Shown: positions 5,987 through 57,518 of the stretch, piece by piece
How the letters are laid out: each line of letters begins with the position of its first letter
Numbering within the stretch: the first letter of the stretch is position 1
Source of the DNA: Bacteroidales bacterium
Lineage (GTDB): Bacteria > Bacteroidota > Bacteroidia > Bacteroidales > Muribaculaceae
DNA length: 64,000 bases
NCBI GenBank assembly: GCA_014800845.1
Contig: JAAVFJ010000049.1
Coordinates: 2,181-66,180 of the forward strand
Direction of reading: 5' to 3'
Program-made: the position numbers and the translations under genes
The notes under the pieces: model-generated
Told to the model about the DNA's origin: nothing
The model's input: the letters and a program-made list of their open reading frames with translations, nothing else
Databases searched by the model: none

Positions 5987-6925
5987 TCACACATAAGGCG
6001 CTCTAAGATGTTCTGCACGATGAATTAGGCCGAAATCAAAGTCTTCAAGCAGCTCATTTGCGGATACGGGTGTCGGCGTGGAGCGCAGCCCCGCTATGTT
6101 TGCAAGCATGCCTATCAGCTCCTCGGCACTGTAATTTTTACGTAGGGCCTCCATGCTCAACGAGGCGTCACGCTTGCTCAGTCGTCTGTCAGAGTCGGGC
6201 GAGAAAAGTAGCGGGACATGAGCAAACTCAGGGGCTGCAAAGCCAAGCAATTCATATATGTAAATCTGTTGAGCCGCTGATAGAAGCAGGTCAGAACCGC
6301 GGACTACTTCTGTTACTCCCATAAGCGCATCGTCGATTACTACTGCCAGCTGATAGCCAAAAGCGCCGTCAGCTCTGCGGACTACGAAATCGCCGCATTC
6401 CTGAGCAAGATTTACGCGTTGTTCCCCATACATTCTGTCTGTGAAATGAATATACCGGTTAGGCACAACGATACGGGTGCTATGAGGTGAGGTCGCTTCC
6501 GGAGCCGGGAATGAATCAGGTCTGCACTTTCCGGAATATATAATTCTGCCATCGCTCTGGTGAGGTGCTTGAGTGGCCATTATGTCCCCGCGCTTGCAGA
6601 AACAAGGGTAAGTGTGGCCGGAGAGCTTGGCCAGATATTGAGAATAAATCTCGCTCCGTCTGCTTTGACTGTAAGGACCATTCGCACCCTTGTCATCCAA
6701 GCCACCCTCATCCCACTCAAGACCGAGCCAAAGCAGGTCTTCTTCTATCTGCTTGGCATATTCCATGCGCGAGCGCTGCGTATCAAGGTCCTCGATACGC
6801 AATATCCATCGGCCACCGCGAGATTTAACCGATAGCCATGAAATCAGTGCGGTAAAAACATTGCCAAGGTGCATACGGCCGGTAGGGGAAGGGGCGAAGC
6901 GACCAACAGGAGGGGTTGAAAGCAT
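5987..6925 (-). CDS. gluQ: Glutamyl-Q tRNA(Asp) synthetase (GluRS catalytic domain only)
   Basis: RFAPSPTGRMHLGN, LRIEDLD, RLSKRD; 312 aa with no anticodon-binding domain. Confidence 0.9.
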   Translation of the reverse strand: MLSTPPVGRFAPSPTGRMHLGNVFTALISWLSVKSRGGRWILRIEDLDTQRSRMEYAKQIEEDLLWLGLEWDEGGLDDKGANGPYSQSRRSEIYSQYLAKLSGHTYPCFCKRGDIMATQAPHQSDGRIIYSGKCRPDSFPAPEATSPHSTRIVVPNRYIHFTDRMYGEQRVNLAQECGDFVVRRADGAFGYQLAVVIDDALMGVTEVVRGSDLLLSAAQQIYIYELLGFAAPEFAHVPLLFSPDSDRRLSKRDASLSMEALRKNYSAEELIGMLANIAGLRSTPTPVSANELLEDFDFGLIHRAEHLRAPYV

Positions 6926-7106
6926 AAGTATGAGTTCAAATTTTTACGAAATCAAATTCAAAAGCAAGAGCTATATGATGAACGTATAATTTTTAATTTT
7001 GGAGGTGATTTCACTCTGTCACTCAGGCGCATAGCTTGCCATGCGCCTGGAACAGCCTCGAAAATAGTTGCGCCTTATATGTCCATATTTTGGGGCCACT
7101 TACTTA
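6925..7106 (+). repeat. Degenerate long copy (182 bp) of the TAAGTAAG inverted-repeat family
   Basis: Left end TAAGTATGAGTTCAAATTTTTACGAAATCAAATTC aligns with the 57437 and 62535 copies. Interior TTTCACTCTGTCACTCA...GAACAGCCT aligns with the 46303 copy. Right end is CACTTACTTA. First base is shared with the gluQ ATG. Confidence 0.8.
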
Positions 7107-7184
7107 AAAATCAGTTTTGAGAGAACTTATTTTGAGCGAGAGTGTTTAAAAGGTAAACGAAATCTTAATTAAACTATTATAGAA

Positions 7185-7787
7185 ATGACACAGACAAAAA
7201 GCCTCAAAGGCACTCAGACAGAAAAATTGGTAGCAGCTTCTTATATGGCGGAAACCCAGGCTTTCGCGCGTTATACATTCTACGCGCAGGCAGCCGACAA
7301 GGAACGCCTATTCCCCATCGGCGTAATTTTCCGTGAAACTGCACAGAATGAAATTCATCACGCCAAGGTTTTCCTGAAGATGCTTGAAAACTCAGAGCTC
7401 AATGAACCCCTCGGAATTGATGCCGGCTATCTTGGCACTACTGCCGACAATCTGAAGATGGCTATCAAGGAGGAGAGCGTAGATGGCTATGAATTCTACA
7501 ATGCAGCAGCCAAGACAGCTACCGAAGAGGGCTTCCCTGAAATAGCTTCTCACTTCACAGCTATCGCTAAGGTTGAGAAATTTCACCATGACCGTTTCAT
7601 CAAGTTCCTTGACATGCTCAACAACGGCACTTTGTGGAAGCGCGAGCAACCCGTAACTTGGAAATGCCTCGTATGCGGTTACACCGTAGTAGGCACTGAG
7701 CCGCCCGCAAAATGCCCCGGTTGTGATCACCCCATGGAGCACTATGTAGCTCTCGAAGATGGCTATGCTCCCGTGGAGGACTTCTAA
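7185..7787 (+). CDS. rbr: Rubrerythrin
   Basis: Di-iron ExxH motifs (NEIHHA, VEKFHH) and C-terminal rubredoxin CLVC...CPGC. Confidence 0.93.
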   Translation: MTQTKSLKGTQTEKLVAASYMAETQAFARYTFYAQAADKERLFPIGVIFRETAQNEIHHAKVFLKMLENSELNEPLGIDAGYLGTTADNLKMAIKEESVDGYEFYNAAAKTATEEGFPEIASHFTAIAKVEKFHHDRFIKFLDMLNNGTLWKREQPVTWKCLVCGYTVVGTEPPAKCPGCDHPMEHYVALEDGYAPVEDF

Positions 7788-7805
7788 GAAAGAATTATAA
7801 ATTTA

Positions 7806-7855
7806 AAAAGATTAGGGTATTTCAAGATGCAAATTTTGAAATACCCTAATCTTTT
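7806..7855. terminator. Bidirectional intrinsic terminator between convergent genes
   Basis: Perfect 20-bp inverted repeat AAAAGATTAGGGTATTTCAA / TTGAAATACCCTAATCTTTT with a 10-nt loop. Confidence 0.8.
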
Positions 7856-7873
7856 GCATTTGCCTCTGAGTGT

Positions 7874-7999
7874 TTTTTTCCAAAAGGAGCGGGTGAAGAT
7901 TGCTATTATCACAAACACCTCCAGGCGCCCGGCAAGCATAAGAAAAGACATACCCCATTTTCCGGTAGAGGGGAGGAAATCAAAGGAACCGGTGGATCC
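7874..7999 (-). pseudogene. trkH: 3'-terminal remnant (~42 codons) of a TrkH-family potassium uptake membrane protein
   Basis: Translates GSTGSFDFLPSTGKWGMSFLMLAGRLEVFVIIAIFTRSFWKK, matching the characteristic TrkH C-terminus (GPxxxFxxLPxxxKWxLxxxMLxGRLExF...FW). No upstream coding sequence is present. Confidence 0.85.
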
Positions 8000-8001
8000 G
8001 G

Positions 8002-8020
8002 TAATTCTTGACACTTACTA
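8002..8020 (+). repeat. Isolated right-end fragment of the TAAGTAAG repeat family
   Basis: TAATTCTTGACACTTACT is identical over 18 nt to the end of the 57437 copy (reverse strand); abuts the trkH remnant. Confidence 0.75.
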
Positions 8021-8026
8021 ATTACT

Positions 8027-8809
8027 TTAGTCGGCATCTTTCCACGCGGGGAACTTCTCGCGGAAGCGCCGCAGTTTTTCTATGTCAAGCTGAGCATAGA
8101 TAAACGGATGCCCCTCCGGATGTATGCCTGTATCTTTTCCTTTGAAGTCTATGATAGCACTTTCGCCGCCATAGACGATGCCCAAGTCATCAGTACCCAG
8201 GCAGTTAACACCTGCCACGTATGCTTCATTCTCAACCGCGCGGGCACGCAGCAGCAGCTCCCAGGCGGAAGATCGCGGTTTCGGCCAGTTGGCCACGGCT
8301 ATCAGCAGGTCATATTCATTCTGTCGGTTTCTGCACCAGATGGGGAAGCGAATGTCGTAACAGACAATCATGGAAATGTTCCAGCCGCGAAAGCGCACAG
8401 CCATACGCTCTGCACCGCGACCAAAAACTTTGTCTTCTCCCGCCATAGTAAACAGGTGTTTCTTGTCGGCAAAAGTTTCCTCGCCATTAGGCTCTATGAA
8501 AAAGGCACGATTGTAGAGCACACCGCCGGAGTCTGCTATGAATGAACCAGCTATGGCCACATTGTGCTTACGCGAAAGCGCCTTGATTGTATCAATTGTT
8601 TTGCCTGTGTTGCGCTCGGCCAGAGGCCGGAGTTCATCGCGGGTCTTTCCTGACATAAATCCGGTGGAAAAAGTCTCGGGAAGAATCAGCAGATCCGTCT
8701 CCGGATGTAGCGACTCAAGTGTGTCGATCAGCACACGCATGTTCTCAGCTTTGTCACCCCACTTTATGTTTTGAGGGAAAAGAGCGATGTTAAGATTTTT
8801 GGTTGTCAT
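8027..8809 (-). CDS. Nitrilase-family amidohydrolase (omega-amidase/YafV-like)
   Basis: LILPETFSTGF (Glu), ADKKHLF (Lys), VCYDIRFP (Cys) catalytic triad motifs. Confidence 0.9.
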   Translation of the reverse strand: MTTKNLNIALFPQNIKWGDKAENMRVLIDTLESLHPETDLLILPETFSTGFMSGKTRDELRPLAERNTGKTIDTIKALSRKHNVAIAGSFIADSGGVLYNRAFFIEPNGEETFADKKHLFTMAGEDKVFGRGAERMAVRFRGWNISMIVCYDIRFPIWCRNRQNEYDLLIAVANWPKPRSSAWELLLRARAVENEAYVAGVNCLGTDDLGIVYGGESAIIDFKGKDTGIHPEGHPFIYAQLDIEKLRRFREKFPAWKDAD

Positions 8810-8819
8810 TAAGGTTTAC

Positions 8820-9362
8820 TCATATTTGGAATTTTTCCGGATAGCGGGCGCAGTCGGCAAAAGGTGCGTAATAAGATTTAATCCTTGCCAGGTCCGCTTC
8901 TATGTCTCCGGTAGGAGAGAACTCCTCATCTATGATAATCTGCTTATGCTTATAGTCTATGACGCCGAGCTGCACCAGGACACCGGCCCCATACGCTATG
9001 CGCAAGAAACCTGTGTGCCACTCAGCTTTCCCGGAGCGGGTGCCTTCGGGGGTAATTGCAAGGTTCATGTAGTCAGTTTCCTTGAATTTACGTATCAATT
9101 GAGTGGTAAGGTCCCCTTTGCGGCTGCGGGTTACGGGTATGCCGCCAAAATGACGGAAGACATATTTAAGCGGGAAGAAAAACCAACTCTCTTTCATAAG
9201 AAAATTGGCCTTTCTTCCTACAGATTTGTACGCTAATAACCCTAAGATAAAATCCCAGTTAGAGGTGTGCGGAGCTACGCATATCACGCACTTATTGCGG
9301 CGAGGAGCCTTTAGAGAAACGCGCCAGCCGAAAGTTTTCAAGAGTAGTCCGCTGATACTCAT
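8820..9362 (-). CDS. Lysophospholipid acyltransferase (PlsC family)
   Basis: APHTSNWDF (HxxxxD) and ITPEGTRS motifs. Confidence 0.9.
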   Translation of the reverse strand: MSISGLLLKTFGWRVSLKAPRRNKCVICVAPHTSNWDFILGLLAYKSVGRKANFLMKESWFFFPLKYVFRHFGGIPVTRSRKGDLTTQLIRKFKETDYMNLAITPEGTRSGKAEWHTGFLRIAYGAGVLVQLGVIDYKHKQIIIDEEFSPTGDIEADLARIKSYYAPFADCARYPEKFQI

Positions 9363-56995: not shown

Positions 56996-57439
56996 ATGAA
57001 GATTAAAGTGAAACGTTTTGAAGAGCTCACCACTTCTGAATTATATGAAATTCTGCGTTGCAGAGCTGAAGTGTTCATCGTAGGCCAGCACTGCAACTAT
57101 CAGGATATTGATGGTGCGGACAAAGCATCGACACACATATATTTCGAAGAGGATGGTTCTATCTTAGCTTACCTTAGAGTGATTGACCCGGGAGTGAAAT
57201 TCCCGGCGGCATCTATCGGACGCGTCCTTACCATGAATGAGTTTCGCGGTCATGGTTTGGCCAGAAAGCTGATGCTTGAGGGTATATCAGTAGCACAAAA
57301 GCTCTCTGATACTATTGAGATAGAGGCTCAGTCATATCTGGTTGACTTCTACCGGTCACTCGGTTTTCGCGAAACTTCCGAGGAATATCTCATTGATGGG
57401 CTTCCTCACATCAGCATGGTTTTAAATATTTCAAAATAA
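56996..57439 (+). CDS. GNAT-family acetyltransferase (ElaA-like)
   Basis: LYEILRCRAEVFIVGQ, SIGRV...FRGHGLARKLM, AQSYLVDFYRSLGF. Confidence 0.9.
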   Translation: MKIKVKRFEELTTSELYEILRCRAEVFIVGQHCNYQDIDGADKASTHIYFEEDGSILAYLRVIDPGVKFPAASIGRVLTMNEFRGHGLARKLMLEGISVAQKLSDTIEIEAQSYLVDFYRSLGFRETSEEYLIDGLPHISMVLNISK

Positions 57440-57518
57440 GTAAGTGTCAAGAATTATATGTTCAAGATATAACACTTACTTCAGAATTTGATATCGTTTA
57501 ATTTTTGAGACTTACTTA
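57437..57518 (-). repeat. Short copy (82 bp) of the TAAGTAAG inverted-repeat family
   Basis: TAAGTAAGTGTCAAGAAT...ATTTTTGAGACTTACTTA; starts in the GNAT TAA stop and ends 5 nt before the next ATG. Confidence 0.85.

Follow-up and report, generated by a model that had tools for sequence, protein, structure and literature searches.

Microhomology-mediated deletions, whether they arise by alternative end-joining or by slippage, leave gene stubs next to the ends of IS elements or MITEs. The locus described here shows the same geometry, with a 4-nt overlap and the apparent loss of an accessory operon, and differs from the known stub-leaving deletions in that its pre-deletion arrangement was seen in no relative. 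Prokaryotic MITEs of the IS630/Tc1-mariner type are TA-flanked, small and non-coding, with inverted termini and dozens of copies, as is the repeat family found at this locus, although at this site the family is represented by just 14-18 nt of one terminus. The stub itself resembles TrkH (PF02386; NF008020), sharing with the last 45 positions of the TrkH profiles the C-terminal helix ...KW.MS.LML.GRLE....FW.. of that protein. MITEs have been surveyed across prokaryotes (PMC11602168) and linked to rearrangements in Porphyromonas gingivalis (PMC2575886).

The DNA analysed (the window) is a stretch of 64,000 nucleotides, G000:C49:2181-66180, from a Muribaculaceae MAG (G000) of 2.45 Mb that is 99.5% complete. 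Positions without a prefix are those of the window, and positions with a contig prefix (C49 and so on) belong to the same MAG unless another genome is named. The features of the locus are as follows.

5987-6925, minus strand: GluQ-like gene of the tRNA-synthetase family
7185..7787, plus strand: rubrerythrin, intact, 200 aa, convergent with the relic (Pfam PF02915 and PF21349; relatives 78-86% identical)
7806..7855, no strand assigned: hairpin with a 23-bp stem (-33.3 kcal/mol, z=-8.3) that scores as a terminator
7873..7879, minus strand: A7 homopolymer covering both Lys codons and the site of the missing stop (alignment of six assemblies)
7874..8005, minus strand: trkH2 3' relic, the last 44 codons (ITGSTGS...SFWKK), from translation and profile searches
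8002..8019, minus strand: fragment of a MITE terminal inverted repeat, AGTAAGTGTCAAGAATTA, identical to 57439-57456 (plus strand)
8020..8029, minus strand: hydrolase stop codon TAA (8027-8029) and a 7-nt spacer, AGTAATT, preceding the repeat piece
8027..8809, minus strand: CN-hydrolase (nitrilase-family amidohydrolase), intact, 260 aa (Pfam PF00795, E=4.9e-37; full-length alignments to relatives)
8820-9362, minus strand: acyltransferase

Hydrolase and relic share a strand, with the hydrolase as the neighbour upstream; reading along the minus strand past the hydrolase stop codon, the order was found to be TAA-AGTAATT-AGTAAGTGTCAAGAATTA-CCGGATCC..., with a frame from 8014 to 7874 that encodes VSR-ITGSTGSFDFLPSTGKWGMSFLMLAGRLEVFVIIAIFTRSFWKK and stays open to 7784. 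A TrkH2 profile made from 10 full-length relatives matched the relic at profile positions 451-495 of 495 (E=4.9e-18, 66 bits) and gave two matches among the 43,061 ORFs of the genome, the relic and the resident TrkH. NCBIfam NF008020 (TrkH) matched it at positions 447-482 of 483 (E=4.5e-5). No Pfam family was returned by hmmscan of the 76-aa ORF, even at E<=10, and the relic was not among the matches when the whole genome was searched with PF02386, so the fragment lies below the reach of Pfam. The profile matches bear out a preliminary description of this DNA, made from its letters alone, which had placed an unannotated TrkH C-terminal remnant between rbr and the amidohydrolase, and the relic ORF is indeed uncalled as a gene in every public assembly of the locus. 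The extent given there, about 42 codons at 7874-8029, has to be amended: the remnant comprises 44-45 codons, about 9% of TrkH, at 7874-8005, and 8006-8029 are occupied by repeat piece, spacer and stop codon.

The relic is not part of a full-length TrkH (~480-500 aa, with four pore-forming repeats), being preceded by transposon-derived sequence and by the stop codon of the hydrolase, and no trkA partner was found at the relic locus. It is without a native start and without a natural stop after FWKK, the point at which relatives all terminate, FW(K/R)x being followed there by a stop. The homopolymer at 7873..7879 differs in length among assemblies, four having A8 where this genome and one independent assembly have A7, and the conserved W-V-M-S-F motif carries a V-to-G change that is unique to the relic (WGMSF, compared to WV/L/MMSF in all relatives). 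The lost stop, the A7/A8 run and the V-to-G change point to a decaying pseudogene of trkH2. It is highly improbable that the 76-aa ORF (7784-8014, with a GTG start inside the repeat piece) is instead a live small membrane-protein gene co-transcribed with the hydrolase: its 76 codons are open, it contains one hydrophobic helix and on the strand of the hydrolase it precedes the terminator, but gene calls leave it out in all assemblies, the A7/A8 polymorphism shifts the frame of its tail among strains, the change to WGMSF is non-conservative as well as unique, and its start codon sits in transposon-derived sequence.

An intact operon of trkA (444 aa) and trkH (489 aa) is present on the same contig (C49:71.5-74.3 kb), 61 kb from the relic, and the trkA adjoining this resident trkH (C49:73004-74338) is the sole trkA in the genome. 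Identity of the relic to the resident TrkH C-terminus was 41% over 44 residues, to congener TrkH C-termini up to 57%, and to proteins of a second type, TrkH2, 56-80%, with the best matches at 77% (an uncultured Sangeribacter sp. MAG) and 80% (P0122). Proteins of the TrkH2 type are ~40% identical to the resident TrkH and are always preceded by their own trkA2, and the orthologues of the resident TrkH in congeners are 51-58% identical to it. Judged by these identities (to the resident TrkH and to the TrkH2 type), the relic comes from the second paralog, trkH2, and not from the main trkH. Two TrkH C-termini, taken to be one of the TrkH2 class and one of the resident type, were counted from the genome table in 56 of 200 congeners (about a quarter); trkA2/trkH2 is patchily distributed and its neighbourhoods vary widely among congeners. 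No further trace of trkA2 or trkH2 was found in the 99.5%-complete genome. When a chimeric full-length query, scored over the 45 relic residues only, was compared with 5.8 billion proteins, no near-identical intact TrkH2 parent was recovered, the closest being 80% identical and in unrelated contexts.

As the trkA-trkH operon 61 kb away is intact, it is an accessory second Trk system that was lost and not K+ uptake. The suggestion in the preliminary description that the strain may have lost a K+ uptake channel is thus not sustained, and a search for a surviving TrkH copy leads to the complete resident trkH of 489 aa.

The repeat piece beside the relic belongs to a family of elements that recurs throughout the assembly, for which three further features are needed.

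57438..57517 (C49:59618-59697), plus strand: complete short-form MITE (80 bp), whose left repeat holds the same 18 nt with the rare CAAGAATTA variant
G000:C77:13824-14012: decayed IS630-family (DDE_3) transposase fragment, followed by a MITE-like terminus
G000:C58:79-210: decayed IS630-family (DDE_3) transposase fragment, followed by a MITE-like terminus

The family has at least 25 paired copies and about 25 ends that are solo or at contig ends; its copies are mostly intergenic and mostly 193 bp long (11 exactly so), with a short form of ~76-80 bp, and its termini of ~20 bp are in inverted orientation (AGTAAGTRTCAAAAATTAA). The pattern T/AAGTAAGT...ACTTACTT/A is seen in almost all copies, so that TA is found on both flanks, either as a TA duplication or as part of the element. 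The terminus AAGTAAGTRTCAAAAATTAA, with at most one mismatch, occurred 52 times in this genome compared to 0-4 times in each of 220 congeneric species genomes, and it was absent from 174 related loci. These counts show a burst confined to this species, and the family is young. The two DDE_3 fragments are each followed by a terminus (GTAAGTAACTCGTAAAAATTAA; ...TTAATTTTTACGAGTTACTTAC) that is similar to the MITE ends, and may be regarded as candidate relics of an autonomous partner, of which no intact DDE_3 representative was found in the assembly. Taken with the TA flanks, the termini of these DDE_3 relics point to an IS630-type origin of the MITE family.

A MITE copy stands at the end of many contigs of the MAG, and the true copy number is probably above our count. 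Many MITE ends abut CAT, which is ATG on the other strand (for example C9:99073, C9:171799, C28:298, C39:18483, C74:11084, C68:156 and C36:151), and others directly abut stop codons; such positions suggest that the family prefers certain targets, or that selection has acted on promoter or terminator activity directed outward from the termini. Solo truncated termini were seen at C3:6408-6431, which retains 24 nt of end A, and at C31:25662-25681, which overlaps the TAG stop of a 454-aa ORF. Within the locus itself, a diverged and complete MITE copy of the same family (6924-7107) fills the intergenic region between the GluQ-like gene and rubrerythrin, with one end abutting the GluQ-like start codon (CAT/AAGTATGAG); the corresponding spacer is only 55 bp in the lineage whose hydrolase is 73% identical. 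MITE-derived sequence is consequently present on both sides of rubrerythrin. A composite transposon made of the 6924-7107 MITE and the 8002-8019 piece, mobilising rubrerythrin between them, was considered and rejected, as rubrerythrin is in its ancestral place.

The 18-mer at the site was found exactly twice in the 2.45-Mb genome, compared to 0.0001 occurrences expected, and both copies (8002-8019 and 57439-57456) carry the rare CAAGAATTA variant. The preliminary description was right in equating this terminus with the copy in the 57437 region and in stating that the rest of the element is missing, as there is no MITE sequence beyond the 18 nt at the site; by-eye comparison with the consensus end recognised no second MITE terminus in 7856-8001. 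The repeat piece is oriented with its outer end towards the hydrolase and its inner end towards the relic. This orientation excludes a simple insertion of a MITE into trkH2 and agrees with a deletion that had one of its endpoints within the element.

At the junction, the inner 4 nt of the repeat piece (ATTA at 8002-8005, the repeat ending ..GAATTA) are also part of the trkH2 codons ATT-ACC. TrkH2 proteins have G-(I/V)-T-G-(I/V/S)-T-G-S-(F/Y)-D-F at this point; P0131 has GITGSTGSFDFLP at the junction codons, and some relatives use ATT ACA for I-T. As ATTA is equally repeat or trkH2 sequence, the junction has a 4-nt microhomology, or one of 6 nt in case GGA was the Gly codon before it. At its other end the relic keeps the natural 3' end of trkH2, ~18 nt from the terminator hairpin.

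The exact hydrolase protein was found on nine public contigs, and the six assemblies that cover the spacer, from at least five samples and produced with several assemblers, have an identical junction. The junction is therefore not a misassembly and is fixed across strains. A chimera of the assembly at the repeat is hardly conceivable: many contigs of the MAG do break at repeat copies, but that agreement between samples and between different assemblers speaks against it, and 18 nt of repeat are too short for a mis-join. An inversion with its ends in the two 18-mer copies (8002-8019 and 57439-57456) could be dismissed, since the genes on either side of the junction follow the same order as in the 73% lineage. 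Among the six assemblies the spacer is polymorphic by a 2-nt difference near 7826-7828, at the basal end of one hairpin arm.

The preliminary description had read the locus as an ancestral order of amidohydrolase, element and trkH, followed by a deletion from inside the element through most of trkH. Comparison with relatives did not recover that order. Neither trkH nor rubrerythrin was found downstream of the hydrolase in any of the 23 congeners that gave a match to the hydrolase (up to 1.5 kb, a few contigs ending sooner); the downstream neighbour of the hydrolase varies widely among these 23, and within the genus this region is a hot spot of rearrangement. In 17 of 17 trkH2-carrying congeners trkH2 and the hydrolase were on different contigs. 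No convergent or neighbouring trkH was present in the relatives with rubrerythrins 82-83% identical, which had other neighbours.

Closer lineages were located through matches to the hydrolase in a protein collection. The closest, with a hydrolase of 92% identity (L155/L156, runs SRR30592907 and SRR30592888), has a lipoprotein gene behind the hydrolase, where its contig ends, and divergence from the window starts right after the hydrolase stop (GACTAA/TCTTACAAC... in L155/L156 compared to GACTAA/AGTAATTAG... in the window). A longer contig of this lineage was sought via the lipoprotein gene, and only the same 3.2-kb contig was returned. The lipoprotein is 165 aa long with no Pfam family, and its sole counterpart in the genome studied here is a distant paralogue (C81:37702-38196, 39% over 90 residues). 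Among lineages with rubrerythrin, the two nearest have hydrolases of 73% and 75% identity, and in both the hydrolase and rubrerythrin are adjacent. In the 73% lineage the order S24-PBP-TPR-116aa-acyltransferase-hydrolase, with rubrerythrin convergent to the hydrolase and followed by the GluQ-like gene, is the same as here, with a 61-bp spacer; in the 75% lineage (L157/L158) hydrolase and rubrerythrin are convergent across a 71-bp spacer containing a hairpin homologous to that at 7806..7855, which looks like a bidirectional terminator serving rubrerythrin and the hydrolase.

Set against these spacers of 61-71 bp, the block of ~175 bp formed by the 7-nt spacer, the repeat piece, the relic and the ~18 nt after it is a lineage-specific insert that separates the stop codon of the hydrolase from the ancestral terminator. 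With none of 23 congeners having trkH behind the hydrolase, 17 of 17 having trkH2 on another contig and the nearest lineages having hydrolase and rubrerythrin adjacent, the relatives largely bear out what the preliminary description had named as refuting it, that trkH never lay behind the amidohydrolase. Of the deletion proposed in the preliminary description, the orientation of the repeat and the ATTA overlap thus speak for the event itself, and the starting arrangement is the part that found no counterpart in relatives.

We give about an even chance to the relic having arisen in situ, by a microhomology-mediated deletion that started inside a MITE, passed through trkA2 and ended in trkH2. 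In this sequence of events the MITE would have spread in the lineage, with one copy settling behind the hydrolase, 7 nt past its stop codon, and trkA2-trkH2 would have lain between that copy and the terminator shared with rubrerythrin. A single illegitimate deletion mediated by microhomology would then have taken out the remainder of the MITE together with trkA2 and ~450 codons of trkH2, possibly triggered by end-joining after a break at a palindromic or excising element or by replication slippage, and would have left the exact natural 3' end of trkH2 beside the terminator. The junction geometry and the microhomology favour such a deletion, and truncation in situ is further favoured by the position of the natural 3' end, ~18 nt from the terminator, which a random captured fragment would not predict. 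The pre-deletion arrangement, with trkH next to this hydrolase or this rubrerythrin, was found in none of the relatives examined, so the in-situ model needs an extra unseen event that placed trkA2-trkH2 in the spacer in this lineage only.

Alternatively, trkH2 may never have been here, and a break in a MITE that had inserted behind the hydrolase may have been repaired with a copy of the 3' end of trkH2, primed on ATTA, from a donor that was later lost completely. The break might have come from IS630-type excision or from breakage of a palindrome, the copy from template switching or filler synthesis, and the donor might have been genomic or foreign. Such an ectopic capture is possible and, in our judgement, rather unlikely. 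The short spacers in the nearest lineages make the ~175-bp block resemble a small insert, both flanks are collinear with the 73% lineage, the contexts of trkH2 in congeners are many and never near the hydrolase, and other truncated repeat ends are present in the genome (C3:6408 and C31:25662). Capture would, however, need a coincidental end at the natural 3' end of the gene just before the terminator, and neither a donor copy nor a second relic was found in the genome. Only one of the trkA2-trkH2 positions of congeners could be located here in looking for a reciprocal scar (after the C11_2445 orthologue), and it showed no repeat end and no trk relic. The spacer in which G073 has trkA2-trkH2 holds in this genome (G000:C11:2300-2430) two tandem palindromic units of ~40 bp (TATTACCAAAAAGTGTCCGAGCGGACAACTTTTGGTAATAG).

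The more specific proposal, that the relic is filler DNA, copied in when a broken, excising IS630-type MITE was repaired, we consider doubtful; to our knowledge, templated filler insertion at transposon excision sites has been documented mainly in eukaryotes and not in Bacteroidota, which weighs against capture here. Were it true, the locus would give bacteria a parallel to the capture of gene fragments at excision sites of eukaryotic DNA transposons, and this young MITE family would be shuffling pieces of genes within the genome of a gut Bacteroidota species.

A third scenario takes hydrolase-trkA2-trkH2-rubrerythrin as the ancestral order of the subclade: the operon would have disappeared cleanly, and independently, from the two relatives, this lineage would have kept a stub, and the MITE would have landed next to that stub later. 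It is improbable and the least parsimonious of the three. A distant genome from another Bacteroidales family (L162, G035:C7:4000-14000) does have CN-hydrolase, trkA and trkH in tandem, the only such adjacency found, and the hot spot behind the hydrolase also speaks for this scenario. The TrkH of G035 is, however, only 40% identical to the relic and no rubrerythrin follows its trkH; moreover, the scenario needs two clean, scarless losses as well as a MITE insertion that was then truncated exactly at the old junction, and it sits badly with a MITE that is young and species-specific.

The locus records that one uncultured Sangeribacter-like species of the Muribaculaceae has lost an accessory second Trk K+ uptake operon, with a clean microhomology junction at which a gene stub is joined to the end of a young, species-specific MITE. 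What is known of K+ transport is unchanged, as the core trkA-trkH operon is intact, and because the main potassium transporter remains elsewhere in the genome the stub is an ordinary genomic scar, of a known kind in a new lineage. The idea that the element promotes gene loss asks more of one junction than it can show. The MITE family is probably more notable than the stub, given its 52 ends here, the near absence of such ends from 220 congeners and the frequency with which they abut start codons. For this organism, the locus offers a small, concrete example of a repeat burst accompanying gene decay in a reduced gut genome of 2.4 Mb.
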